A stretch of DNA of 62,770 nucleotides from an uncultured cyanobacterium. Its GTDB lineage: Bacteria > Cyanobacteriota > Vampirovibrionia > Gastranaerophilales > Gastranaerophilaceae. The stretch covers positions 1 to 62,770 of the forward strand of contig CAMNNA010000001.1 in NCBI GenBank assembly GCA_946545285.1, written 5' to 3'. Position numbers and translations under genes: made by a program. Of this stretch, positions 1-30,524 are shown piece by piece (position 1 is the first letter of the stretch; the number at the start of each line of letters is the position of its first letter). Below the pieces are notes generated by a model. The model worked only from the letters and a program-made list of their open reading frames with translations, had not been told where the DNA came from and searched no databases.

Positions 1-1
1 A

Positions 2-520
2 TTTGATTGGCTTGATATTTCTCAATCTCAAAGAGATGATATTATTGCAAAATACAAAAACCTTCTTTTTGACTCAAATTCAAGTGATATTTATTTTACA
101 AAAGATGAATTTAAACAAAAATTTGCTCAGTATAAAAAAGACAAAAATTTCAAACTTCATTACATGCTCACAAATAACGGTGTAACAGAAGATGAAGATG
201 CGAAATATTGTGCATTTTATTTTAAAAACAAAACATTAGTTATGTATGCAATTCAATACAAAAATAATCCGCATAATTCATTTTATTACTCTGCATTTGG
301 CAAACTATATTATACAGATGTCACATCAGATGAATATCCGAATTTTCCTTATACATCAATGCAATATGACAGAAAAGGCCGTTTAAAAAGTGCTATTTAT
401 TTTATATCAAAAGATTTACAGTATATGTACGGGCCTGATAAAGAATTCCAAGGTATTTGGTATAAAGATAAATTGTACGACAGAAATGGTAAGCAAACTC
501 TGACAAGAACTAATTGGTAA
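2..520 (+). CDS. hypothetical protein, 5' end outside window
   Basis: Frame 2 is open from nt 2 to TAA 518-520. The listed ORF 164..520 is only its Met-initiated tail. Y/K/D-rich, no motif recognised. Confidence 0.5.
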   Translation, partial: FDWLDISQSQRDDIIAKYKNLLFDSNSSDIYFTKDEFKQKFAQYKKDKNFKLHYMLTNNGVTEDEDAKYCAFYFKNKTLVMYAIQYKNNPHNSFYYSAFGKLYYTDVTSDEYPNFPYTSMQYDRKGRLKSAIYFISKDLQYMYGPDKEFQGIWYKDKLYDRNGKQTLTRTNW

Positions 521-586
521 TTAACAACTCTTAATAAAATTTGTTTAAAGTATCAAATTTTTATTTTCATAGGCATTATTTAGCCT

Positions 587-3500
587 ATGAAAATTTTCAA
601 TGTAAGTAATATAAATATCTTTCCACAATTTTTAGGCAGAAGAAAAGACCGCAATACTGTCGAACAATTAACTCAAAATAATGATTACAATCTGAATCAT
701 AACAATCAAATTCGTATAAATAAAGCGATAGAAAATTTATCAAAATCATCAGATAAAGAAACAGTTGAGTTTTTACTTGACACTGCAGATAATTTAAAAT
801 ACGGGACAAATATTAATTTACGGGCAAAACAACCGTATAATGATTGGCGTTTAAAACTCAATAAAGCTGCATTGAAAGTTTACAAAAATTGTAATGATAA
901 CGATAAAAAGATAATAGATGAAAAAATGTTTAAGACTTTAGGGATTACCCAAAAGCCTCTAACAGATGATGAAAAAGAAATTTTGGAATTAAAAAAATCA
1001 ATATTATCAAATACTAAATCCAAAGAATTGGAAAACGTAAAAGGTCCGATGAAAAATCTTGTAACTAATTTAGATTATTTCATTATAAGTTCTGAAGTCT
1101 CAACTGCGGAAAAGCTTTATATAATGAAGCAATTAGATTATTTTATGAGTGATGCCTATGAAATTAACCCTCAGTTGAAAAATAAAAAAACGCAGGCATT
1201 AGCCGAAATAGTAAATGACATAACCGTTAATACCCCTGAATCAGAATATCCGAACACCAAGGCGATAAATCAAATGGGGCATGGGATTTGCGCCGCAATA
1301 TCCATATGCAGAAAAGCACTTTCATATGAACAGAAAGCAAAATATGTTGATATGGTTCTATCAGAGCTTGATTCAAATGATTACATGATGGTTTATGATA
1401 TTACAAAACTCGGCTCAGGAACAAAAATTCCTGTAAAAAAAGCTTCGATGGATTTTGAATATGCACTTGAAAAAGGATACCGAATAGTTGACACATCTGC
1501 TATGTATTGGATGAATGTTGCAGATATGGTCGGAGCGACAAATGAACAAATACAAAAATATATTCCGTTTAATAAAGGGGATTTAGATGTTTTACAAGAC
1601 TCACATATAAATGAAAATCTCGATATTGAACTGATTAACAAGCAAAATTTCTACAGAACATTAATAAAAAGCAGAGAACTATTTAAAAAATATCAAGTAA
1701 AAAAAGAAGAAAAACTGCATAAAGAAAGATTGTCAAAAAATTTAACCAAAAATAAATTTGATACAATTTATAAATATGAAACTTTGTTGGAAAATTTACT
1801 TTTTGATATTTCCCCAAAATCTGAAAGATCTGATATTAAAGAAATTAAAAAAAATTTACTTAATTTACAGGTAAATAATTCCGAAAAAAAAGAAAAATTT
1901 CCTAAAGAATTACAAAAATTTTCTTACATAGAAAATGAAGACGAAGAAATCATTCAAAAAAAGATAAAGCATTATTTAAGTGCAAATTACAATTTAGATG
2001 AAGAAAAATTAGAAAAAAATATTGATAAAATCGCAGAATATACAACAGAAATTAATAATCTTACAAAAGGAGATCAAATACATCCGGCTGCGAAATTAGT
2101 TCAAAAAAATAAGCAGTTATATTCTATTGCCGCAAGTTACCGAATTGCGCAGGAATATAAATTAAATATAGATGAAAACAAAGAGCATTTCATGACTTTA
2201 TACAACATTCCTGATACAGGTACATTAATGATTGAAAATCTGGATTATCTTATAAACTTGCTGGAAAAAGATAAGATGGACACTACTCTAAAAACCGGAT
2301 TGAAGAAAAATTTTGAAATTTCTGAAAGTAGTGATGAAGAATTACTAAAAACATTAAAAGATGTTAAAGACACAATTACTTATCTTTATACTGATTTGTT
2401 AGATGTTATGTACAATTCAATCTTATCAAAAGACAGAAAATCAGTACTTCATAATATGATTTTAGATTTAGAAAATGATATAGACGGAAAAATAACTCCT
2501 AATACTATAACAAAAATCGCAAGAGTTTTAAAAACAAAAGAAAATAAAGACGCAATTTTAAATAAATTATATGAACTTAATAATATATTAGAATCAGAAA
2601 ATCTGACTGAGGATAAATTAACTTATGTCTACAATTCAATCGGAGGAAAACTTCCGTTTGCAGATTTTTCGCAACAATTAAAGAAACTTAGCTATATACT
2701 TTTTGTAGACAAAAATACTCAGGTTATTCCGGGGTTTAATTTAATAAACGGGCTGGATAAGGATGCACCGTTATCTGAATCAGCAAAAGTTTTCTTGAAC
2801 ATTAATAACAATATGAATAACATTATCCAAATGATTAATTCATATAAACAAGCTTTAAAAGTCACCGATAAAACAGGAAGAATCCTAAATACCGTTGATG
2901 AAAATGATTATATTTTAAAAAAATTGGAAGAACACGGAAATGTCCCGAAAAGAAAAGATTTGGAACATTTTAGAGAAAAATTCAAAGAAATTGATAAAAG
3001 AAGATACAATAATGATGACAAAATAAAAGATATGCCGCCTGAATTAATAAAATTTAATTCATACGAAACTGAAATACTTAAAAATTACCAAAAACATATT
3101 GATATTTGGGCATCAAATGTTAATAAAGATTATATTTCAATTACAAAAGATTTAAAACCTCAATTAAGTGAACAGCACAGAAAAATAGGAGAATTAACCG
3201 GACAACGTTGGGTTCGCGTTGAAGGGGAAAGCGGGTTATCAAGCAATCAGGAAATAAAGATTTTTGAACATATGACTGATAAACCGTATTATTCTGAATC
3301 TGACAGCCAAAAGGCTATTGAAAAATTAGAAGAATCAAATTATCCTGCGATTTCAGCAACATCAGTTTCACATAAAGAACCTGCAATGCATGCTCAATAT
3401 ATAGCGGGGATATACACAGATGAATCCGGTAAAAAACTCTTTATGCATGACAACAGTTGGGGAAACTCGGAATTCAAAAATAATTGGAAAGATAAAAACG

Positions 3501-6490
3501 GAAGGACAAGAACCGATTATGAAAACGGTTATGGAGGAGAAAAGGGGTATATAGTAAACAATGAATACAAAACCGGCTATGAATTAGATGATATTTTAGA
3601 TGCTACTGTTGTTGTAAAACCTAAAAACACCCCGTCAAAAAAATTAAAAAAATTACACGGCGACTCGGACTATGAATGGTCTATGCCAATGTATAGAAAT
3701 ACAATACTGCAAGGAAAACACCCGAAAAGAAATGATTACGTTGAAATTATAAGGCAATTAATATTGCATAGCCCGGCGGCTTATCTTGATTCACTGTCTA
3801 AGCAGGCGCAAGAAATGACTGTTGATGAAATTAAAATGAAAATCAAAAAAGCCGAAACTATCGGAAAACACACTGCCGGCACTTATAATAATATTTTAAG
3901 CAAAATAAAAGGGGACGGTATCTTGAATTTTGGAATTAAAAATCAAGATGATTTTAACAAGCTGTCTGATAGTGATGATTTAAAGATAATTTTGGAAAAA
4001 GTTGCTATATCAAAATCTTACCCGAGTATAACTAATACTAAAAAATTATACAGTATTTCAAACTTTAAAGACTTACAAAAATTTAAAACCGAATTAAAAT
4101 CCGAAGCTATAGAAAATTTCAAATATTCTTTCGGGAAACATATTGATATTATTAAATACGGAGCCGAAAGTTCAAGAAAAGAAATTAACAGTTTACTAGA
4201 ACAATTTGAAAATTCTAATAATCTCAAAGTTGATTATTCTAAAAATAACCAAATAATAAGTTCTATGAAAAACATTTCCATAAAAGATTTTGACGGGAAT
4301 ATGGCGCATTCTATCGACACAATGACAAATATTTTTAATTCAGAATTTTCAAAATATTTATCGAAATTTAAAATAACAAATGATAAGGCCCAGGATCTAT
4401 CATTAAAAGTAAAAGATATATTAGAAAAAAATATGTATATAAATGAATCAGACTTAAAGTCTGAATTCAATGATGATGAAAACTTTAAACTTATTGAAGA
4501 ATTTATTGACAATAAAGATAATCCAAAAACAAATTCAGAATTTGTTAGTATTTTTAGAAATTATCAAAATATGACAACTGAAGAATTTAATTTGAATACT
4601 GAAAAATACTTAACTGACCGTATTTTAGGAATAAAAACCGTAAAAGGTTTTGATGTTATTAAAAAATTAAATCAAGGAAATGACAGTTACAGCGATTCTT
4701 TATTTAACATAATATTTGAACAAGAATATAGAAAAGAAACAGATTTAAGTAAAACAAAACCGACATACGATTATTATAAATTCTCAAGGATATATAACGG
4801 TCAAATATATCCGCAAGGCAGAACATTTGATGATGTATTTATAGATTATTATTACGATTTGTATATGTTGAGTAATAAAAAACGCATAAATAAAATCAGC
4901 GCTCAAATGTTCGAAAAATACGGTGTTTTCCCCGGATATCCCGACATTGATCCTGAATCTAAAGAAGGGATTAAAAAAACATTTGACAGATTGTTTGAAG
5001 TCATTGATGAAAATTCCGCAGCGATTTCAAGAAATAAAGAAATGATTGAAACTTACAGGTATATTGATGATTTACATGCAATGCTTGAATCTTCAAATGG
5101 TGATAAATTAATAAACGAAAAAGAATATAAAGAAATCAAAAAAAGATTTAAACTCGTAGAAAAATCACTGGAAGAAGATGATTCTACATTAAATATAGCA
5201 ATTGAAATAAAGGATCTGTTAGCGTCAAAAACACTTGATAGAGCAGCATATACGGCAATTTTGGCAGAAATTGAATTAACTATCGGCAGATTTCGTTACA
5301 CTCCTGCAGGCAAAACATTAAATGAACAAATTAAAGAGACAGACGAAGAATTAAACGATTTTGTAAGAAGTTTTGTAAATCATTCAATTCATCCGAAATA
5401 TCGTGACAGAGCATTTGATGCAATAAATGAATTTATAAAACTAAAAGCACGGTATTTTGATTATTCTGAACCGGATAAAAAACTTGAATACAAGCTTGAT
5501 AAAACATATGATAAAATTAAAAAAATATATGATAAACACAGAATATATCAAACATCAGAAGAAATACTAAAAGAATATGTATTAATGCATGCAAAAGATT
5601 ATCAAGTTGCAAAACCTGATACAAAGTCCGAACGTGCTGTAAAAGATTTATCTGAATTTGAAATTAAGAAAAAATCATTTAAAAATCTTTTAAAAGGGCT
5701 GCTTGCATCTGCTGAAATGGCGTCATTATTGAGAATTCTAATGACATGCGCTGATGAAGCGAATTTAAATGTTGTTAAAGAAGCGTTTAAAAATTCAAGT
5801 ATAGAACTTATAAACGGGCTTAGAGTTGCAATGGATTCAAATGAAGGTCTTGAGATCTTACTAAATCAATTATCAACTGAAAAAGATCAAAAAACTGCAC
5901 TGATGTTCATTGAGCAGCTGGGTTTAAGCGAACGTGCAATGGAAGTTTTAACTAAAAAAGCAGATTTTGAAAACAGATATAAATTAATAAACAGGGCACA
6001 TTCACTTTTAAAATCTCTTGATGCCGATATTGGTTTTGTCCACAGACAGCTTAAAGATATGCAGAATTATAAAAATAGAAATGACCTTTTTGTTAAAATT
6101 GATGAATTAAATGAAAAACTATTAAAAAGAAGAAAATGGACAAATTACAGACACGGAATCGACTTATATTCCGAATGTTTAAAAATGACAAAAAATCGAC
6201 TAAAAGATGTTGATCAAAAGGATTTAAAAGAAACATTTAATGAATATATGGATGCAACAGAATCAGTAATAATAAAAGATGCTCGGGATGAAGTCAGTGA
6301 AATTAATAAAGCAATCGAAAGCTATAATATGATTAATAATATGGTAGAAGAATTAAAAATTCCTAAAAATTCTGAGGCTGAAAAGCTAAAAGAAAAATAC
6401 CAAAAAGATTTTGAAGATTTTATTGAATATTGCAAAAATTCGAACAAAAAATACCCTAACATTGCAACAGAAACAGAATCTGATTTGTAA
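587..6490 (+). CDS. giant orphan protein (1967 aa) with putative split papain-like cysteine peptidase motifs
   Basis: One uninterrupted 1967-codon ORF, K/N/E/I-rich, with no signal peptide or TM seen. Q229-x5-C235 (NQMGHGICAAIS, nt 1271-1303). H935 ... D955-N956-S-W-G (AMHAQYIAGIY...LFMHDNSWG, nt 3383-3463), followed by GYGGEKGYIV. Confidence 0.8.
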   Translation: MKIFNVSNINIFPQFLGRRKDRNTVEQLTQNNDYNLNHNNQIRINKAIENLSKSSDKETVEFLLDTADNLKYGTNINLRAKQPYNDWRLKLNKAALKVYKNCNDNDKKIIDEKMFKTLGITQKPLTDDEKEILELKKSILSNTKSKELENVKGPMKNLVTNLDYFIISSEVSTAEKLYIMKQLDYFMSDAYEINPQLKNKKTQALAEIVNDITVNTPESEYPNTKAINQMGHGICAAISICRKALSYEQKAKYVDMVLSELDSNDYMMVYDITKLGSGTKIPVKKASMDFEYALEKGYRIVDTSAMYWMNVADMVGATNEQIQKYIPFNKGDLDVLQDSHINENLDIELINKQNFYRTLIKSRELFKKYQVKKEEKLHKERLSKNLTKNKFDTIYKYETLLENLLFDISPKSERSDIKEIKKNLLNLQVNNSEKKEKFPKELQKFSYIENEDEEIIQKKIKHYLSANYNLDEEKLEKNIDKIAEYTTEINNLTKGDQIHPAAKLVQKNKQLYSIAASYRIAQEYKLNIDENKEHFMTLYNIPDTGTLMIENLDYLINLLEKDKMDTTLKTGLKKNFEISESSDEELLKTLKDVKDTITYLYTDLLDVMYNSILSKDRKSVLHNMILDLENDIDGKITPNTITKIARVLKTKENKDAILNKLYELNNILESENLTEDKLTYVYNSIGGKLPFADFSQQLKKLSYILFVDKNTQVIPGFNLINGLDKDAPLSESAKVFLNINNNMNNIIQMINSYKQALKVTDKTGRILNTVDENDYILKKLEEHGNVPKRKDLEHFREKFKEIDKRRYNNDDKIKDMPPELIKFNSYETEILKNYQKHIDIWASNVNKDYISITKDLKPQLSEQHRKIGELTGQRWVRVEGESGLSSNQEIKIFEHMTDKPYYSESDSQKAIEKLEESNYPAISATSVSHKEPAMHAQYIAGIYTDESGKKLFMHDNSWGNSEFKNNWKDKNGRTRTDYENGYGGEKGYIVNNEYKTGYELDDILDATVVVKPKNTPSKKLKKLHGDSDYEWSMPMYRNTILQGKHPKRNDYVEIIRQLILHSPAAYLDSLSKQAQEMTVDEIKMKIKKAETIGKHTAGTYNNILSKIKGDGILNFGIKNQDDFNKLSDSDDLKIILEKVAISKSYPSITNTKKLYSISNFKDLQKFKTELKSEAIENFKYSFGKHIDIIKYGAESSRKEINSLLEQFENSNNLKVDYSKNNQIISSMKNISIKDFDGNMAHSIDTMTNIFNSEFSKYLSKFKITNDKAQDLSLKVKDILEKNMYINESDLKSEFNDDENFKLIEEFIDNKDNPKTNSEFVSIFRNYQNMTTEEFNLNTEKYLTDRILGIKTVKGFDVIKKLNQGNDSYSDSLFNIIFEQEYRKETDLSKTKPTYDYYKFSRIYNGQIYPQGRTFDDVFIDYYYDLYMLSNKKRINKISAQMFEKYGVFPGYPDIDPESKEGIKKTFDRLFEVIDENSAAISRNKEMIETYRYIDDLHAMLESSNGDKLINEKEYKEIKKRFKLVEKSLEEDDSTLNIAIEIKDLLASKTLDRAAYTAILAEIELTIGRFRYTPAGKTLNEQIKETDEELNDFVRSFVNHSIHPKYRDRAFDAINEFIKLKARYFDYSEPDKKLEYKLDKTYDKIKKIYDKHRIYQTSEEILKEYVLMHAKDYQVAKPDTKSERAVKDLSEFEIKKKSFKNLLKGLLASAEMASLLRILMTCADEANLNVVKEAFKNSSIELINGLRVAMDSNEGLEILLNQLSTEKDQKTALMFIEQLGLSERAMEVLTKKADFENRYKLINRAHSLLKSLDADIGFVHRQLKDMQNYKNRNDLFVKIDELNEKLLKRRKWTNYRHGIDLYSECLKMTKNRLKDVDQKDLKETFNEYMDATESVIIKDARDEVSEINKAIESYNMINNMVEELKIPKNSEAEKLKEKYQKDFEDFIEYCKNSNKKYPNIATETESDL

Positions 6491-6514
6491 AAAAATTTAT
6501 TTATAACAAAATAG

Positions 6515-6523
6515 TGGTATAAT
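6515..6523 (+). promoter_or_regulatory. extended -10 promoter element directly upstream of the histidine kinase ATG
   Basis: TGgTATAAT at 6515-6523. The ATG at 6530 is 7 nt downstream and no SD is present. Confidence 0.45.
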
Positions 6524-6529
6524 CATGAT

Positions 6530-7273
6530 ATGGACGATAGTGAAAAACGCTACGAAGATTTTATATCAACAGTTAGTCATGAATTAAGAACACCGTTAAC
6601 ATCTATTCGCGGTTTTGCGCAAACTATGCTTAATTCTTGGGACAAATTGGATGATGAAACCAAAAAGAAATTTGTAAAAATAATAGAAGAACAATCAAAC
6701 AGACTTATTCATATGACTGAAAATATGTTATCTGTCACAAAAACAGGAACAGATAAAAAGTCTTTGCATTACACAAATTTCAGCATAGGTAATCTTTTAA
6801 ATCAGACTCTGTATGTTTTAAAACAACAATACAAAAATCAAAAATTCGATATAAAAATTTCTCCTGAAAATATTGAGATTTTTGCTGATAAAGATAAATT
6901 CCAGCAAGTTTTAACTAATTTGATAGAAAACAGCGCAAAATATTCAAAAGAAGAATATTTAACTTTTATCAACATAAGAAATTTTGAAAATAACACGATA
7001 ATCGAAATTTCAAATACCGGAATACATATTGAAAGAAAAGATTATCAAAAGATATTTACTAAATTTTCGAGAATAGATAACCCTTTGACAAGGCAAGTTC
7101 AAGGAAGCGGACTTGGTTTGTACATAACAGAATCATTAATTAAAAAAATGGGCGGTGAAATAAGTGTAAAATCGGAAAAAATAAACAATTCCGAATTGGC
7201 AAAAATTACTTTTACCGTTAAGATGCCAATTAAAAATATTGAAGAACAAGCGAGGATACAATGCAATCAGTAA
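6530..7273 (+). CDS. sensor-less histidine kinase (HisKA + HATPase_c only)
   Basis: H-box FISTVSHELRTPLTSIRGF, N-box LTNLIENSAKYS, G2 box GSGLGLYITESL. 247 aa with no TM or input domain. Overlaps the next gene by 13 nt. Confidence 0.85.
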   Translation: MDDSEKRYEDFISTVSHELRTPLTSIRGFAQTMLNSWDKLDDETKKKFVKIIEEQSNRLIHMTENMLSVTKTGTDKKSLHYTNFSIGNLLNQTLYVLKQQYKNQKFDIKISPENIEIFADKDKFQQVLTNLIENSAKYSKEEYLTFINIRNFENNTIIEISNTGIHIERKDYQKIFTKFSRIDNPLTRQVQGSGLGLYITESLIKKMGGEISVKSEKINNSELAKITFTVKMPIKNIEEQARIQCNQ

Positions 7274-8565
7274 CATTAATCATAGATAAAAGACTTGAAC
7301 TATCAACAAAATATAAAAAAATGCTGGAATCTGATACCAATAAAGTTATAATTTCAAAAGATCTGCTTACAGCTATAAAAATAATAAAAGATAACGAACC
7401 GGATTTGATTATAATATCGGATAGTTTTGATAATGATTTATCAGACTTTTGCAAACAAGTAAGGGCATTGACCTATAATATGCGACCTGTAATAGTAGCT
7501 TTATCAAAATCTGCGGATATAAATGACAGAATCAAAGTTTTAAACAGCGGAGCGGATGATTTTTTATCAGAACCGGTTAATATGGATGAATTTAAAGTCA
7601 GAATGAACGCTCATTTAAGACGGGAATTTGAATCTAACTTCGATCCGAAACTTGTACTTGGCAATAAAAATTACACCTTAAGAGCAATAAAAAGAGAACT
7701 TGTAAAAGATTGCGATTGGGGAATGCTATATATCACAATTGAAAATTTTGACAGTTATAAACAAGCATACACTGAACTTGCATCAGATAAACTTTTGCAA
7801 ACCTTCACCGCAATTATAAAATCCGGAATTGAAGAAACAGATTATCTTGGACAATTGGAAGAAAATTCTTTTTTAGTTATTACAAACCGACTAAAATGCG
7901 AAAAAATTGCTAATTATTTAACTTATGCATTTGATTCTGTTTCGTCAAGATTCTACGCAGAACACGATTTGACAAGAGGGTATATGATTTTGCAAGGGGA
8001 TGAATTTGCCGGAAAAAGAGTGAATTTTGTTCACACAACTATTGGTGCAATAACAAATTCTTCCGGTAAATACAAGACAATAAATCAAGTTCTAAATTCA
8101 TTAATACAAATCCATAATCTTGCACAAAAGCCGAACAAATCGGATTATTTAATAGAAAGAGAACAAATCCAAGGTGCAAATAGTGTTTGTGAAAGAAAAT
8201 ATAATAATAAAATTGTAATTTATGAACCTGATAGCGCTTTGAGCACTTTATTAAGCGCTATTTTAGACCTTCAAGGATACGAAGTAATCGTTATGGAAAA
8301 ATATTTAATGCCTAAAAAAATTATAAATCCGGCACTTGTAATAATAGATGCCGGTGATTTAGGAAAGAAAAACGGACTTAATCTTTGTTATAAAATAAAG
8401 AATTCAATTGATTTTAAAAATTCAAAAGTTGTTGTAACATCTGTTGTTCATGATAAAGAACTTGTATTAAATACCGGTGCGGATTTATACTTGCCAAAAC
8501 CATACGAAATTCCTAATATGATCAGGTGGATTGATTCGTTGGTTAAAGAATTTAACGAAGGCTAA
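7261..8565 (+). CDS. response regulator: pseudo-receiver, degenerate GGDEF-like domain, C-terminal receiver
   Basis: The N-terminal REC-like fold has eroded sites (LIIDKR, DDFLSEPV with E in place of the conserved K). The middle domain is GGDEF-like, but the motif reads LGQLEENSF. The C-terminal REC keeps D (VIIDAGD), T (VVVTSV) and K (LPKPYE). Confidence 0.7.
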   Translation: MQSVTLIIDKRLELSTKYKKMLESDTNKVIISKDLLTAIKIIKDNEPDLIIISDSFDNDLSDFCKQVRALTYNMRPVIVALSKSADINDRIKVLNSGADDFLSEPVNMDEFKVRMNAHLRREFESNFDPKLVLGNKNYTLRAIKRELVKDCDWGMLYITIENFDSYKQAYTELASDKLLQTFTAIIKSGIEETDYLGQLEENSFLVITNRLKCEKIANYLTYAFDSVSSRFYAEHDLTRGYMILQGDEFAGKRVNFVHTTIGAITNSSGKYKTINQVLNSLIQIHNLAQKPNKSDYLIEREQIQGANSVCERKYNNKIVIYEPDSALSTLLSAILDLQGYEVIVMEKYLMPKKIINPALVIIDAGDLGKKNGLNLCYKIKNSIDFKNSKVVVTSVVHDKELVLNTGADLYLPKPYEIPNMIRWIDSLVKEFNEG

Positions 8566-26452: not shown

Positions 26453-27616
26453 ATGAAACGCAAAATTAGTATACTGGGTTCAACCGGCTCAATAGGCCGT
26501 CAAGCACTGGAAGTTATAGAAAAATTAGAGGATAAGTTTGAAATAATCGCTTTATCCGGCGGCAGTAATGTTGAATTACTAAAACAGCAAGCATTGAAAT
26601 TTCGACCGAAATACGTTTGCATAGGCAATAAAAATGCTCAAAAAACAGAAATTCCCGAAACAGAAATAATATATGGTGAAGAAGGATTGGAACAGATTTG
26701 TTCAGATAAAGAAAATGATATTATTCTTGTTGCAGTATCAGGAAAAATCGGATTAAAACCGACCTTAAAAGCCATCGAATCAGGGATTGATATTGCTCTT
26801 GCAAATAAAGAAACGCTTGTTATGGCAGGAGAAATCGTAATGCAAAAAGCAAAAAATGCAGGGGTAAAAATTATTCCTGTTGATAGCGAACATTGCGCAA
26901 TTCATCAATGCATTAAAAATATATCACAAGTTGAAAAACTTATAATCACAGCAAGCGGAGGACCTTTTTTAAAAAAAACAATAGATGATATGAAATCTGC
27001 AACTGTAGAACAAGCTCTTGCTCATCCGAAATGGAATATGGGCAAAAAGATTACAATAGATAGTGCAACGTTGATGAATAAAGGTTTAGAAATAATAGAA
27101 GCCCATCATTTGTTTAATATTGATTATGATAAAATAGATGTAGTTGTTCATCCGCAAAGTGTTGTTCATTCTGCTATTGAATATAAAGACGGAAGTGTAA
27201 TCGCGCAATTGGGATTACCAAGTATGCATATTCCTATACAGTATGCAATTTGTTATCCGGAAAGATTTGAAGGAATAAAATCCAAAAGCTTCAGTTTTTC
27301 AGAAATCGCAAGACTGGATTTTGAAAAACCTGATTATGAAAAATTTCCGGCACTAAATATGGCATATAATGCCGGTAAACAAGGTACGGGAGCAACAACA
27401 ATTTTAAATGCGGCAAATGAAGAAAGTGTTTTTGAGTTTTTGGATGGGAAAATAAAACTCTATGACATTTATAAAATAGTAGAAAATATGTTAAATGTAT
27501 TTTCCGGAGAAAAACCGCTATCAATAGATGAAATATTTGATCTGGATAAAAATGTAAGAATAAAAACGCAAGAATATATTTTACATGGACTTGAAAAAAA
27601 AGTTTTTTTGCCATAG
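26453..27616 (+). CDS. dxr: 1-deoxy-D-xylulose 5-phosphate reductoisomerase
   Basis: ISILGSTGSIGRQALEV NADPH-binding motif, LANKETLV, DSEH, and length 387 aa. Confidence 0.95.
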   Translation: MKRKISILGSTGSIGRQALEVIEKLEDKFEIIALSGGSNVELLKQQALKFRPKYVCIGNKNAQKTEIPETEIIYGEEGLEQICSDKENDIILVAVSGKIGLKPTLKAIESGIDIALANKETLVMAGEIVMQKAKNAGVKIIPVDSEHCAIHQCIKNISQVEKLIITASGGPFLKKTIDDMKSATVEQALAHPKWNMGKKITIDSATLMNKGLEIIEAHHLFNIDYDKIDVVVHPQSVVHSAIEYKDGSVIAQLGLPSMHIPIQYAICYPERFEGIKSKSFSFSEIARLDFEKPDYEKFPALNMAYNAGKQGTGATTILNAANEESVFEFLDGKIKLYDIYKIVENMLNVFSGEKPLSIDEIFDLDKNVRIKTQEYILHGLEKKVFLP

Positions 27617-27659
27617 GCTACGAGTAGGTGATTAGAGATACCGAATTTTGATAAATGAT

Positions 27660-28112
<453 letters not shown>

Positions 28113-28148
28113 CTTGACGGGACATAACTTATGTTATGTCCCGTCAAG
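28113..28148 (+). terminator. perfect 16-bp hairpin immediately 3' of tRNA-Arg (no U-tract)
   Basis: CTTGACGGGACATAAC (28113-28), loop TTAT, GTTATGTCCCGTCAAG (28133-48). The terminator or processing role is inferred. Confidence 0.45.
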
Positions 28149-28196
28149 TCTGTTTAAAGGCAGTTCGAAGAACTCCACAAAGCGACCGCTTTGTCA

Positions 28197-28356
28197 GGAG
28201 TTCGAGCGAGTTGCGAGCAGAGGCTGGAGCAGATTTTGCTTGTGGCTGAAAGCCACTAAAAGCAAAATGCGGAATGCCGTTTATTGCGAGCAACTCAAGA
28301 CAATCTCTTCGGGCGTAAATTAAAAGGATAGGGTTTATCACTATCCTTTTAATTTA
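28197..28356 (+). ncRNA. candidate structured RNA unit A: tRNA-Arg 3' 24 nt split in the T-loop by a 97-nt insert, plus terminal hairpin
   Basis: GGAGTTCGA (28197-205), insert 28206-302, ATCTCTTCGGGCGTA (28303-17), 16-bp hairpin 28316-56. Insert stem GAGTTGC/GCAACTC, tandem GA/GA, GCA/UGC. Inner 9-bp + 5-bp hairpin 28233-68. Confidence 0.5.
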
Positions 28357-28384
28357 CGTTTGAATATTGATGAGAATTCTTATT

Positions 28385-28543
28385 GGAGTTCGAGCGACCT
28401 GTGAGCAGAGTGCGAAGGCTTGATTGCGAAATAATTATAAAATTATGTAGCAATCAACCGTAGACACGTTTAATGCGAACAGGTCAAGACAATCTCTTCG
28501 GGCGTAATAAAAAAGATAGGGTTTATCCCTATCTTTTTTATTA
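28385..28543 (+). ncRNA. candidate structured RNA unit B: second copy of the T-loop-split tRNA-Arg 3' fragment
   Basis: GGAGTTCGA (28385-93), insert 28394-491, ATCTCTTCGGGCGTA (28492-506), 17-bp hairpin 28505-43 with A6/T6 flanks. Stem GACCTGT/ACAGGTC covaries with unit A. Conserved GAGCAGAG and CGTTTAWTGCGA. Confidence 0.5.
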
Positions 28544-28843
28544 CGTTAGGAAGTATAAGAAGCTCTGGATTAGGAGTTCGGCGCAAGCGAGCCAAGTGGC
28601 GGTTTTATGCCCGTTTTGGTCGAAAGCAAACAAGGGTAAACTGAAGTTTCTACCAATACACCATTATATCAAAGCAGTCAGAAGTTGTTTAAGACTATAA
28701 GTTTCAAAACGAACTAAAGTCAACGATTCTTACATTTTTTACTTAGTTTTGCCAATGGCATCAACCGTTGCTCGTTTGTTCAATATCCATTTTCTTGCAT
28801 AATTGAAGGTCCGGTACTTCGTACCTGCCTCTGCTCAGCGTGC

Positions 28844-28873
28844 AAAAAAAAGTTGCCATTGAATAACGGCAAC
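28844..28873 (-). terminator. minus-strand intrinsic terminator
   Basis: GTTGCC/GGCAAC stem (28852-73), followed on the minus strand by U8 (A-run 28844-51 on plus). Lies about 285 nt beyond the stop of 29157..30524. Confidence 0.6.
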
Positions 28874-29156
28874 ATTAAATAAACACGAGGATATTAAGAG
28901 AGAGAGAGTATAAAAAAACTTTTTTTGCTTAAATCCTGACTTTCATTTATATTTTATGATTTAACTCTTATTTTCCTTTTTTACTTTTTTAAATTTCCCT
29001 TACACTTATATAAACAATTTTTACTCACAAAAATTGCCTAATTTATTAAAATGTTGTTAACATTACTTAAAAACAAGGGGAAAATAAATATTATACATGC
29101 ATTTTGTATATACTTTTTATTTCAAAAACCAGAATAAGCTTAACAATTTATTAACT

Positions 29157-30524
29157 TTAATTAGCATGGTTGTTATGCTTTTTTATTCCTTCACGAATTT
29201 CAACAACATCAGTGCCTAACTGTTCAAGAGCCTGCATTGCGGTAGAATCGGGCAAAGTTGTTATTGCCCAAAGTAAATCGGAAGATTCAATTTTTGTTTT
29301 ATTAGTTTTTTTAGCGTACTCCCATGCCAGTTCCAAAACTTTTTTAGCACGAGGCGTAAACACGATTTCACTATCAAAATAATCATTACCGACACCAATA
29401 ATTTTTTCTACAATAATTCTTGCATCACGAATGGTTATTTCCAATTCACTTAAAACCTTAGCGCCGATACCTGTTGCTTCACCGATTATACCAAGCAAAA
29501 ACATTTCTGTTCCGACAATATTTTTCCCCAATCTGCGCGCCTCTTGTTTTGCTAAACGCAAAATTGTAAGAGTTTCAGGCATTTGTTTTTCTATTGGTTT
29601 GATAATAGTATGAGCTAAATCGTCATCATTTATATTTATTTCTTTAAAAATATTGTATGCAACACCTTTTTTAGCCTTCAACAAACCTAAAATCATGTGT
29701 TCGGGCAAAACTTCAGATGAACCCAATTCTTTTGCGGTTTGAAGAGCTAAACTCATTACTCTAAATGCGTTTGGAGTAAATACAATTTGTCTTCCTTCAT
29801 ATTCGGCTTGTCTGGATTTTACCTTTGACAATTTATCTTCAAATACAACTTCATTAATACCAAAACTTTCCAAAATTTTTGTCAAATCAGATGTTTTGTC
29901 TTCTAAAATTGAGGATACAATTTGTTCTGTTCCTAAAATTTCGTAATTGGAAGTTGATAACTTTGACACGGCGCGCTCAAAAACTTTGGACGATTCTTCA
30001 TTATCAAACAATGAATCTGTTTCTTCTGTTAAATCTATTTCTTTTTCATTTTCTTTCGATTCAATTTCAGGGTGAAGATCATTTTTAACTTTTCTTTGAA
30101 CAAGTTTTTCTATCAAAGGACGGGATTTATCAATATCAAAACCAAGATTTGTAAGATACTGAGAAATTTTTGAATGTTGATCGTTAATGACCGCAAGCAT
30201 AAGATGTTCATAGTGAACTGTAGAATTTTCCGATTCTTGAGCCAAATCCATTGTTCTTGTTAAAATTCTTTTAAAGTCATCACTAAACGGTAATGCAGAT
30301 GTTAATTCTGATTCTTCGATGTTTAGAGACATGTAAATTTCCTTGGCAAGACGTTCGTAGGTAATATCATAAGAGCTGAAAATTCTTGCGCAAAACCCTT
30401 TTGTTTCTTTTACCAACGCCAAAAGCAAATGTTCCGACAAGACTTTTGCGCTATGGTCATAAATTGCAATATTTTGAGCTTCAACTATTACATTAAGTGC
30501 TTTTTCGGTAAATTTTTCAAACAA
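29157..30524 (-). CDS. Clp N-terminal (Clp R) repeat protein without AAA+ module
   Basis: Six Clp_N half-repeats (SEHLLLALVKE, YEHLMLAVIND, TEQIVSSILED, PEHMILGLLKA, TEMFLLGIIGE, SSDLLWAITT) make three R domains. No Walker motifs. Confidence 0.75.
   Translation of the reverse strand: MFEKFTEKALNVIVEAQNIAIYDHSAKVLSEHLLLALVKETKGFCARIFSSYDITYERLAKEIYMSLNIEESELTSALPFSDDFKRILTRTMDLAQESENSTVHYEHLMLAVINDQHSKISQYLTNLGFDIDKSRPLIEKLVQRKVKNDLHPEIESKENEKEIDLTEETDSLFDNEESSKVFERAVSKLSTSNYEILGTEQIVSSILEDKTSDLTKILESFGINEVVFEDKLSKVKSRQAEYEGRQIVFTPNAFRVMSLALQTAKELGSSEVLPEHMILGLLKAKKGVAYNIFKEININDDDLAHTIIKPIEKQMPETLTILRLAKQEARRLGKNIVGTEMFLLGIIGEATGIGAKVLSELEITIRDARIIVEKIIGVGNDYFDSEIVFTPRAKKVLELAWEYAKKTNKTKIESSDLLWAITTLPDSTAMQALEQLGTDVVEIREGIKKHNNHAN

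Follow-up and report, generated by a model that had tools for sequence, protein, structure and literature searches.

A conserved RNA module in T-loop-interrupted tRNA 3'-end copies of Gastranaerophilales, a candidate portable element

The stretch of DNA analysed here, hereafter the window, comprises 62,770 nt of contig CAMNNA010000001.1 (assembly GCA_946545285.1) from an uncultured member of the Gastranaerophilales. Behind its tRNA-Arg(ACG) gene lie two tandem units, A and B, each containing a copied tRNA 3' end whose T-loop is split by a structured insert of 97 or 98 nt, here called module M. M is a conserved structured element under selection at the RNA level. More than 250 copies were recovered, nearly all from Gastranaerophilales (Melainabacteria) metagenome-assembled genomes (MAGs) and from gut or rumen metagenomes, together with four phage contigs. 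They form one family with a common fold, are linked to tRNA genes with a strict polarity, and undergo insertion, deletion and recombination. The reading we favour, tentatively and with slightly less than even confidence, is that M is a portable RNA module inside tRNA-linked trailer units that are gained, lost and recombined.

Results

Units A and B interrupt a copied tRNA 3' end

Both units lie on the forward strand, 3' of the intact tRNA-Arg(ACG) gene (28039–28113, forward strand; ARAGORN; Rfam tRNA, 65.9 bits), which ARAGORN and Rfam identify as the sole tRNA of the window. In unit A, the flank GGAGTTCGA (28197–28205) is followed by M copy A (28206–28302, 97 nt) and by a tail (28303–28358) that starts with a copy of tRNA nt 59–73 (ATCTCTTCGGGCGTA, 28303–28317) and ends in a perfect 18-bp hairpin with an internal T-run (28314–28358), of a type common to units of other genomes. 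In unit B, the same flank (28385–28393) precedes M copy B (28394–28491, 98 nt) and a tail (28492–28545) consisting of ATCTCTTCGGGCGTA (28492–28506) and a 19-bp hairpin (28503–28545). When the flanks of either unit are joined, they match the last 24 nt of tRNA-Arg(ACG) at 24 of 24 positions, which places the insert between tRNA positions 58 and 59. Without D and anticodon arms, the units can give rise to no tRNA.

Upstream of GGAGTTCGA, each unit contains further sequence that pairs with its own flanks through two helices, Z and H. The 5' part of unit A (28165–28205) consists of the Z5' strand UCGAAGA (28165–28171), whose partner is the tail segment UCUUCGG (28306–28312), the H5' strand ACUCC (28172–28176), an inserted hairpin (28177–28194), and GGAGUUCGA (28197–28205), which provides the H3' strand, the 5' strand of the T-stem and the start of the T-loop; its assignment relies on the three-way-junction fold described below and on family-wide Z and H pairing. 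The 5' part of unit B (28367–28393) reads UUGAU-GA, H5' (GAAUUCU, 28374–28380), a UAUU loop, H3' (GGAGUUC, 28385–28391) and GA, following the family consensus Z5'-GA-GAAC...GUUC-GA. Helix Z is weak in unit B, with only GAU/AUC pairing.

The original prediction, made from the letters of the window alone, had described the coordinates, flanks and insert lengths of the two units exactly, and its placement of the insert in the T-loop of a tRNA 3' fragment, the 24-nt match and the absence of the rest of the tRNA body all hold. It had the flanks and the insert right, but began the units at GGAGTTCGA, missing the upstream strand antisense to the T-arm that gives the three-way junction; with this segment included, unit A starts at ~28165 and unit B at ~28367. 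It also put the hairpins at 16–17 bp, where we measured 18–19 bp.

M copy A has the layout GC-P1(GAGUUGC/GCAACUC)-GA-P2(GCA/UGC)-GA-P3(GGC/GCC)-loop-P4 hairpin-loop-GUUUAU-P2'-GA-P1'-AAGACA, and copy B differs in P1 (GACCUGU/ACAGGUC) and P3 (GUG/CAC). The two inserts fold alike, as had been predicted, with z-scores of -3.65 (A) and -6.98 (B). A covariance model built from other genomes (R1) scored copy A at 89.5 bits (E = 1e-21) and copy B at 95.8 bits (E = 2e-23), the next best score in the window being 10.5 bits. The conserved half-motifs of M were likewise found in the 62.8-kb window at A and B only (expected numbers 0.04 and 0.00). In the promoter scan, promoter-like sites appeared only before tRNA 5' copies, with none before units A or B, and the hairpins at the tRNA-Arg locus are weak terminators.

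M is a structured RNA family

Pattern scans made from the positions common to A and B found the first homologues in four IMG/VR contigs. Scanning one genome per species gave at least 134 M instances (128 distinct) among the matches listed, nearly all of them in Gastranaerophilales/Melainabacteria MAGs from human gut, rumen and other animal guts, and a metagenome scan with a core pattern that put no constraint on the flanks added at least 124 further cores among the matches listed. Some pattern-scan matches are coincidences in coding sequence, and a viral scan with a 14-base 5' half-motif was uninformative (~110 matches, mostly chance). GenBank phages gave no match to the M query. The R1 covariance-model search found 117 M copies in 100 genome loci.

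The consensus of M is GC-P1(7 bp)-GA-P2(GCA/UGC)-GA-P3(3 bp)-CGRAG-P4(variable hairpin)-CGUAGA-P3'-GUUUAW-P2'-GA-P1'-AAGACA. Its internal loops, which include tandem G·A and loop-E-like motifs, are asymmetric and highly conserved. P1 occurs in at least 15 compensated variants, often with an internal tandem G·A/A·G, while P3 is GUG/CAC in 79, GGG/CCC in 23, GGC/GCC in 19 and GAG/CUC in 2 of the matches listed. On an alignment of 49 sequences, 88.8% of the P1–P4 cells were paired, compared to 69.4% after shuffling (none of 500 shuffles reached the observed value) and 30–43% when the partners were slid; double changes occurred in 14 of the 19 M pairs. Mismatches on the tRNA strand are more often G·U than A·C, and the tandem G·A pairs fit the same strand. 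Because of this covariation, the tandem G·A pairs and the excess of G·U over A·C on the tRNA strand, we conclude that M is selected as RNA. The original prediction had reached this view from the compensated P1 arms of copies A and B alone (GAGTTGC/GCAACTC and GACCTGT/ACAGGTC) and had proposed a homologue search with a covariance model as a check; the search yielded hundreds of covarying homologues, so that what was seen between two copies holds across the family.

No Rfam 15 family matched M, even at E ≤ 10, over 27500–29250 or in the related loci; the only Rfam matches at the loci examined were to tRNA, tmRNA, 5S rRNA, signal recognition particle RNA and RT-18 RNA, all outside M. No description of M or of the units was found in the literature searched, and a look through a survey of structured RNAs in microbiomes turned up no mention of M. 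The claim that no such element had been described therefore stands for Rfam 15 and for the literature covered.

Units follow tRNA and tmRNA genes

About 100 of the 134 listed M copies lie 65–110 nt 3' of a complete tRNA gene on the same strand (ARAGORN), or 250–310 nt where units are in tandem, and the non-coding spacer between tRNA and M is uniformly 52–109 nt. The 9 nt before M and the 15 nt after it match the last 24 nt of the neighbouring tRNA at 21–24 of 24 positions. The host tRNAs are those for Leu, Arg, Gly, Ser, Ala, Asp, His, Tyr, Gln, Thr, Lys, Val, Ile, Glu, Asn and Met, amounting to at least 25 isoacceptors, and tmRNA is used as well. The unit predicted at tRNA-Arg is real, and its architecture recurs at these other hosts, which span nearly every tRNA identity in gut and rumen Melainabacteria; this recurrence the prediction had missed. 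Immediately before M, TTCGA is found in 76 of the 134 listed copies, with GTTCA, GTTCG and TTTGA making up most of the remainder; flanks of this kind place M in the T-loop at about position 58/59.

Among 239 listed cores, 147 are preceded on the same strand by a tRNA or tmRNA at a distance of no more than 420 nt; a tRNA lies only downstream in none of them, and only on the opposite strand in one. Of the copies as a whole, ~60% are placed 50–110 nt 3' of a complete tRNA or tmRNA gene of the same strand. For the 124 listed metagenome cores, the context is a T-loop in 70, of which 62 are preceded by a tRNA or tmRNA, and something else in 54 (44%). Eleven tRNA genes in the same loci have no unit. 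Because no locus examined contains a second, uninterrupted copy of the tRNA 3' end, the duplicated 3' end and M always occur together.

In several loci, CCA is missing from the intact tRNA, which is followed by the unit-type terminator (AATTAAAGAGGATAGG...), and is present in the tail after M, which has another terminator; the reverse arrangement also exists. The terminator-like hairpin AATTAAAGAGGATAGG-loop-CCTATCCTCTTTAATT travels with units across genomes and shows compensatory changes (L135, L136, L167 and other loci). In the window it occupies 28318–28354 and 28506–28542; elsewhere it follows either the intact tRNA or the tail.

An associated protein gene was sought by clustering the open reading frames (ORFs) around 120 loci, which returned only histidine kinases, prepilin-like proteins, ABC transporters and TypA. 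Prepilin-like genes are the second commonest neighbours of units in genome loci. No transposase, integrase, recombinase, reverse transcriptase or RNA-guided effector gene recurs near units in ~240 loci.

The upstream strand and two alternative folds

Upstream of yyyGTTCGA, the units share a conserved GA-GAAC-yyy' sequence that pairs with yyy-GUUC to form helix H, often with an extra hairpin that has a GNRA-type loop. Helix Z results from complementarity between the 4–9 nt directly before the GA and the start of the tail (for example GGAU/AUCC, GGAC/GUCC, GAGGU/GCCUC, GAGAC/GUCUC, GCGAC/GUCGC and, in L185, GAGAUGGAU/AUCCAUCUC). Anchored helix Z averages 3.85 bp, compared to 2.20 bp with the tails of other tRNA types, and reaches at least 4 bp in 67% of units versus 30% of controls. 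From the pairing of Z and H together it follows that the upstream strand is antisense to the whole cognate T-arm, with its GA facing G57-A58.

Two folds were compared on a gap-free concatenated alignment of 42 units. In the nested fold, made of Z and H, 79.5% of cells were paired versus 69.1% after shuffling, and two pairs explained by this fold alone were formed in 41 and 39 of the 42 units, with 6 and 15 double changes, respectively. The alternative fold, in which a small hairpin precedes a T-arm that has M in its loop, gave 71.7% versus 56.7%, and one of its T-stem pairs was formed in all 42 units with 16 double changes. For unit A (28164–28313), both the minimum-free-energy and the centroid structure are a three-way junction (-58.6 kcal/mol, z = -4.24). 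The data are compatible with both the three-way junction of Z, H and M and a T-arm carrying M at 58/59, and the units may possibly switch between the two.

No cis partner was found for the part of the tail that corresponds to the acceptor 3' strand, the best pairing run being 4.72 compared to 4.65 for shuffled sequences. A cis acceptor 5' strand, as in a minihelix or a split tRNA, was rejected on the same comparison.

M outside tRNA loci

The original prediction had treated the insert as a tRNA interruption. This is correct for A and B, but M also occurs outside tRNA contexts and in phages. It sits in intergenic hairpin loops of phage contigs that encode terminase, portal, tail-sheath and major-head proteins; in one of them (L014), M is antisense to the flanking phage genes. 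Locus L020 contains one and the same hairpin in two states, empty at position 4143 and filled at position 4212, and the filled site shows no target-site duplication (TSD): the empty hairpin cagattccgaaacgaGTTCGGAAT and the filled cagattccgaaacga, M and GTTCGAAAT differ by M alone. In most contexts M follows (Y)GA, which includes AACGA, AGCGA and GCCGA in addition to TTCGA. Stand-alone copies driven by promoters were found in L252/L271 and in L315/L330/L352.

A subfamily of M cores (L302, L315, L330 and L352; contig VOFC01002229.1 and relatives) lies right after TATAAT-type promoters and ~55 nt upstream of the start of a short repeated ORF (MSKRSH...). In L302, the M core is inside a prepilin-like reading frame; the core is in frame, and the frame runs on into a prepilin-type N-terminal domain (FTLAEVLITLG...).

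Copies of M and whole units also show signs of turnover. M–M tandems and truncated copies occur (L164, L188), tandem units are frequent, and at a relative's tRNA-Arg locus (L217) the unit is a recombinant with an H like that of A and an M like that of B. Two other assemblies of the window locus (L001 and L003) lack one 161-nt unit of a second type, derived from the tRNA 5' end and described below, as a clean indel, so that copy number is polymorphic within the species. The original prediction had named a DNA transposon or miniature inverted-repeat transposable element (MITE), with terminal inverted repeats and TSDs, as one finding that would refute it. A classical MITE of this kind is not supported, as the arms covary and the single empty/filled pair has no TSD; the indel and mobility behaviour itself is real.

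One phage-like contig (L018, IMGVR_UViG_3300032167_000393) contains a reverse transcriptase gene (6092–7355; PHROG 1423) preceded by an RT-18 RNA motif (RF03021, 46.7 bits), ~4.5 kb from a unit with a tRNA-Val-like tail that includes CCA. Just upstream of this unit lies a second tail, tRNA-Ala-like and without M.

Other tRNA-derived units and the surroundings of the locus

The inventory of the original prediction was incomplete, since two more tRNA-derived units lie upstream on the forward strand at 27645–27966. They form a 161-nt direct repeat of copy 1 (27645–27805) and copy 2 (27806–27966), which are 96% identical; copy 2 is the one absent from the two other assemblies. Each has a promoter-like site (TTATCA-17-TAAAAT; 27686–27714 in copy 1, promoter scan) and a copy of tRNA nt 1–18 that breaks in the D-loop at AGCTG|G (GCGCCCGTAGCTCAGCTG, 27717–27734 in copy 1). 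This is followed by a structured GC/GA-rich segment in which a D-stem-like GAGC and a succession of GGAGUCGA, hairpin and GA are retained. A 5' unit homologous to these is found before tRNA-Asp in L233, while those before tRNA-Lys (L208) and tRNA-Val (L218) are of other types. The idea that 5' units are general partners of the 3' units was rejected, as a 5' duplicate occurs at only 4 of ~105 tRNAs.

Downstream of unit B, a third, degenerate unit start without a tRNA tail is recognizable by sequence at 28555–28640 on the forward strand. An H-like hairpin ending in AGGAGTTCG leads into a different, truncated module (GCGCAAGCGAGCCAAGTGGCGG...TTTTATGCCCGTTTTGGTCGAAAG) that R1 does not detect, in which GAGCCAAG resembles a phage M variant; the motif TTTTATGCCC..TTTGGTCGAAAG recurs after a unit at tRNA-Asn in L158. 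In L217, an H similar to that of the third unit is followed by GCGGATTTGCGG in place of M. Farther downstream, GGTCCGGTACTTCGTACCTGCCTCTGCTCAGCGTGC (28810–28845) holds the reverse complement of the M motif GAGCAGAGGC, and a similar stretch, CCTGCCTCTGCTCGGGCTC, stands directly before a tRNA-Gln-like tail in L145; judged by sequence, stretches of this type suggest another module type.

A different arrangement was observed in L210 (also in L196 and L228), where a ~700-nt block of GA-rich repeated modules (GAAGTGAGCG, GCGGATTTTGCG, AATCCAAGAC...) lies within about 1–3100, with M at the tip of a ACTCTGCCGA...GAGAGG hairpin. The block is situated between a complete 5S rRNA gene and a duplicated 5S 3' fragment, antisense to 5S, and is the same logic of a gene with a duplicated 3' fragment applied to another stable RNA. 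An abundant short hairpin repeat (GTCATTCNGA...TCNGAATC / CCTGAAATAAATTCAGGGTGAC), often adjoining M (L133, L158, L198, L021/L022 and others), may be an independent family resembling repetitive extragenic palindromic (REP) sequences.

The tRNA-Arg locus is a 1.54-kb intergenic region (27617–29156) between dxr (26453–27616, plus strand) and a gene with a Clp_N domain (29157–30524, minus strand), in housekeeping surroundings of ~31% GC. The dxr homologues point to the same group, Gastranaerophilales/Melainabacteria. Gene order 3' of dxr is not kept in relatives at ~80% identity, and no orthologous loci were gained that way. The tRNA-Arg gene has a promoter-like site (28008–28036, forward strand, promoter scan) and its own 17-bp hairpin (28112–28149, forward strand, inverted repeat). 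Read by eye, its T-stem (GGGAG/CTCTT, 28087–28103) has two G·U pairs at the base, CCA is not encoded, and G1 is paired with U72. On the minus strand, two sigma-70-like promoter matches (10 of 12 positions) at 28663–28755 point left to units B and A, and antisense transcription over the units from these sites is possible. A minus-strand terminator (28873–28852) is probably the end of the Clp_N gene transcript.

Discussion

On the reading that we favour, A and B would be a tandem pair of one composite non-coding RNA unit that is linked to tRNAs and characteristic of Gastranaerophilales. Such a unit, situated in the 3' trailer on the tRNA strand, would start with the T-arm-antisense strand (Z5'-GA-GAAC-yyy') and a loop or GNRA-type hairpin, continue with the sense 5' strand of the T-stem, the start of the T-loop (yyy-GUUCGA) and the ~95-nt M, and end with what remains of the tRNA from nt 59 to its 3' end, CCA included in some cases, and a terminator-like hairpin. 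M itself may be a self-contained portable RNA domain in which P1–P4 are joined by tandem G·A and loop-E-like internal loops. At the DNA level, M and whole units undergo insertion, deletion, tandem duplication and recombination between loci. As the sequence 3' of the insertion point exists in duplicate, the intact tRNA gene is never lost. The units would be co-transcribed with the tRNA by read-through and would spread or be kept without an enzyme of their own. M is probably a protein-binding platform, or one for processing or stability, and may be a non-autonomous mobile or portable element that is mobilised in trans.

Several points weigh against this reading. In the ~240 loci, the surroundings of the units show no recurrent transposase, recombinase or reverse transcriptase, the clean pair of empty and filled sites is a single case, and unit turnover could result from ordinary recombination among repeats, not from transposition. 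A mechanism is needed by which a new unit gains an antisense strand and a tail that match its own tRNA. Old, vertically inherited scaffolds whose M is exchanged by gene conversion fit the data equally well, and the nearest relative of M at the same tRNA in another genome, found in 26 of 75 cases, supports such scaffolds. Finally, the conserved loop nucleotides, the presence of M in compact phage genomes and the promoter-driven copies point to a real cellular or viral function, not to a purely selfish element.

More far-reaching interpretations are conceivable, although we regard them as doubtful. M might be a mobile RNA module of a new kind, which enters abundant folded RNAs as RNA, at loops that these expose (the tRNA/tmRNA T-loop at 58/59, and hairpin loops of phage and host transcripts), and is fixed in DNA by reverse transcription and recombination, with related modules using the D-loop after G18. 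Alternatively, and equally new, the units might constitute one regulatory or quality-control RNA per isoacceptor, specific for the cognate tRNA, in which an antisense/sense T-arm switch is combined with a common effector domain.

The best-surviving rival to the portable-module reading is that the units are host genes for tRNA-cognate small RNAs, inherited vertically, whose turnover reflects gene conversion and unequal crossing-over among paralogous units. The target of the T-arm antisense strand or of the single-stranded acceptor-3' tail would be the cognate tRNA or its precursor, its gene, or an enzyme that binds tRNA. Possible roles would include processing, quality control, regulation and that of a decoy, with M as a protein-binding or scaffold domain. 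Such a role would account for the co-variation of Z, H and the tail with the neighbouring tRNA, the strict sense polarity, the conserved junction purines (GA, GAGC, AAGACA) and internal loops, and the lack of a cis partner for the acceptor strand of the tail, which is left free to pair in trans. M is also more alike at the same tRNA across genomes (similarity 0.806 versus 0.754), and while the nearest relative of M is at a different tRNA in 46 of 75 cases, the 26 at the same tRNA compare with ~3–4 by chance, on a rough estimate. Small RNAs of this kind are less easily reconciled with the 11 tRNA genes without a unit in the same loci, the variation in unit number between and within species, the common degenerate, chimeric and truncated copies, and the 44% of listed metagenome cores outside any tRNA context; antisense pairing to a folded T-arm is also energetically implausible. 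We consider this explanation possible but less likely than the favoured one.

An RNA-level origin by way of an intron-like or self-cleaving M is improbable. M would reverse-splice or ligate into loops of abundant RNAs and be copied back into DNA by a reverse transcriptase, the partial tRNA copies being cDNAs begun at the tRNA 3' end. The insertion points are indeed RNA loops (T-loop 58/59 and hairpin loops for M, the D-loop after G18 for the 5' units), TSDs are lacking, M at tRNA loci always has the orientation of the host transcript, it is the RNA fold that is under selection, and one phage-like contig with a unit has a reverse transcriptase and an RT-associated RNA motif. The tail starts exactly after A58, and m1A58 is a classical stop for reverse transcription in tRNA. 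Against this, M matches no known ribozyme or intron model, even at E ≤ 10, and the self-splicing introns known so far are all far longer than its 95 nt. Ribozymes cleave at fixed sites, whereas M may be followed by A or by G; reverse transcriptase genes are not a recurrent feature of the unit surroundings; in L014, M runs antisense to the phage genes around it; and neither the upstream antisense T-arm strand nor the siting beside the parent gene is simply explained.

Movement as DNA is more improbable still. M would here be a non-autonomous element of the IS200/IS605 palindrome-associated transposable element (PATE) or REP/REPIN type, moved as single-stranded DNA by a Y1 transposase or RAYT encoded elsewhere and inserted 3' of CGA in hairpin loops. 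This would agree with the absence of TSDs, insertion right after (Y)GA in most contexts, the hundreds of intergenic copies, phages included, and even the strict strand bias, which would fit single-stranded DNA targeting. REPIN arms are reported to keep their complementarity by compensatory change, as do the terminal inverted arms of M. However, none of the ~240 copies adjoins a Y1 transposase, RAYT or TnpB gene, and the asymmetric conserved loops with tandem G·A and a loop-E-like motif are features of RNA and not of DNA hairpins. As TTCGAA is palindromic, antisense insertions would be expected, yet none was seen, and the duplicated tRNA tail and antisense strand that accompany M at tRNA loci are left unexplained.

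Scars of att sites, left by deleted phages or islands that tyrosine integrases had once placed at tRNA/tmRNA 3' ends, with M at the element end beside attR, are a largely refuted and very unlikely source of the units. Such 3' ends are classical targets of integration, their direct repetition is reminiscent of attL/attR, several loci combine an intact tRNA lacking CCA and bearing the unit-type terminator with a displaced tail that has CCA and another terminator, and M occurs in phages of these hosts. Yet more than 100 loci contain no integrase or island gene between the repeats, random deletions would not leave so uniform a spacer, the repeat is always interrupted at 58/59, a single module family serves at least 25 tRNA targets, and phage M lies in intergenic hairpin loops between structural genes without att-type tRNA-like flanks.

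Least probable of all is a role as guide, similar to omegaRNA, crRNA or bridge RNA, with M as scaffold, the tail as guide to tRNA genes, TTCGA resembling a target-adjacent motif and a nuclease, transposase or recombinase as partner: TnpB omegaRNA does consist of a scaffold and a target-matching 3' segment, as does M with its 15–18-nt target-identical 3' segment and terminator, and the unit has sense and antisense copies of the target, but no TnpB, IscB, Cas12 or IS110 gene is near any copy, a unit adjoining its own target would be self-targeting, 44% of the listed metagenome M cores have no tRNA-like tail, and the antisense and sense segments pair together instead of lying in open loops.

If the favoured reading is correct, a highly structured RNA domain that has so far gone unrecognised is present in hundreds of copies across a whole bacterial order and its phages. 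It would reside mainly in an arrangement not described before, in which a tRNA gene is directly followed by a truncated copy of its own 3' end, broken in the T-loop and accompanied by a T-arm-antisense strand. As a portable module, M would be an RNA element with a new insertion logic aimed at the loops of structured RNAs; alternatively, the units would be a family of tRNA-cognate RNAs. Both possibilities bear on tRNA gene evolution, bacterial RNA biology and phage–host exchange. The units would also explain long GC-rich "non-coding" stretches and tRNA fragments in the tRNA flanks of Melainabacteria MAGs, and R1 offers a means of annotating M.

Comparison with Known Systems

Introns of the non-canonical type in archaeal tRNAs, and tRNA genes that are split or permuted, likewise interrupt the T-loop (58/59, 59/60) with flanks that restore the tRNA exactly, and the break of the related 5' unit in the D-loop adds to the likeness. 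Here, in contrast, the host is bacterial, the copy has no D or anticodon arms, an intact tRNA gene lies next to it, and M also occurs outside tRNA contexts and in phages. The units, which correspond to tRNA nt ~50–58 and 59–73, contain no complete cloverleaf, as ARAGORN and Rfam detect only the gene at 28039–28113. Nor is M an intron within an otherwise complete tRNA, since an antisense T-arm strand and a hairpin, with no D or anticodon arms, lie upstream of GGAGTTCGA. No bulge-helix-bulge motif (3-nt bulge, 4-bp helix, 3-nt bulge) was seen at the M borders on reading the predicted folds, no dedicated search for it having been run.

Group I introns have a P1–P9 core of at least ~200 nt and usually lie in the anticodon loop, as opposed to 97/98 nt in the T-loop, and there was no Rfam intron match at E ≤ 10. 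Known small self-cleaving ribozymes (hammerhead, hairpin, twister, twister-sister, pistol, hatchet and hepatitis delta virus-like) were rejected for want of an Rfam match at E ≤ 10 over 27500–29250 and the related loci, and no Rfam 15 family reached its gathering threshold at M or the units. In the stretch GAUGAG...GUUCGA, the CUGA and GAAA cores of a hammerhead are absent; the stretch is the Z5' strand and varies with the tRNA. At the 3' border, where ACA|GUC might recall the hairpin ribozyme, positions +1 to +3 vary (ATC, GTC, GCC, AGT) and are paired in helix Z.

Integrative elements at tRNA/tmRNA 3' ends also duplicate the 3' segment as a direct repeat and leave the gene intact, and in some loci it is the displaced copy that looks original, having CCA and a terminator of another kind. 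The units differ in being only ~170–190 nt long, with no integrase or cargo, in having a downstream repeat that is always interrupted at 58/59, and in using one module family for at least 25 tRNA targets. An integrase att duplication was accordingly rejected, the 52–109 nt between tRNA and M being non-coding spacer.

REP/REPIN sequences and IS200/IS605 PATEs share with M a length of ~100 nt, hundreds of intergenic copies, compensated arms, no TSD and insertion at a short motif. M differs by its asymmetric loops of RNA type and strict sense polarity, by the lack of a RAYT or TnpA gene in the loci, and by always being accompanied at tRNA loci by a tRNA tail and an antisense T-arm strand; Y1 transposase, RAYT and TnpB genes were absent from the ~240 fetched loci, whole genomes not having been screened. 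A classical MITE or insertion sequence was rejected, as there is no TSD (the L020 pair; the exact tRNA 24-mer) and the arms vary yet stay complementary, with at least 15 P1 variants. RNA-guided systems (TnpB omegaRNA, IS110 bridge RNA and the homing crRNA of CRISPR-associated transposons) were set aside because only housekeeping ORF families surround 120 loci, and integron attC sites because the R''/R' GTTRRRY boxes are absent on reading the sequence.

Small RNAs from 3' external transcribed spacers (3'ETS) are, like the units, structured RNAs in a tRNA trailer that probably derive from the same transcript; they are short sponges for other small RNAs, in contrast, and lack tRNA-derived sequence, a modular domain and an architecture shared across isoacceptors. 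The T-loop motifs with insertions in RNase P RNA, rRNA and T-box stem I are similar in that M leaves between 58 and 59, which we take to be the point where natural T-loop motifs accommodate bulges or whole helices, and the surrounding T-stem pairing of the units covaries. The difference is that the motif occurs here in a truncated tRNA copy, not in a large functional RNA, and that the nested fold would dissolve the T-loop. The units and M fail at least one defining feature of each known family tested, and we know of no described system with this combination of traits.

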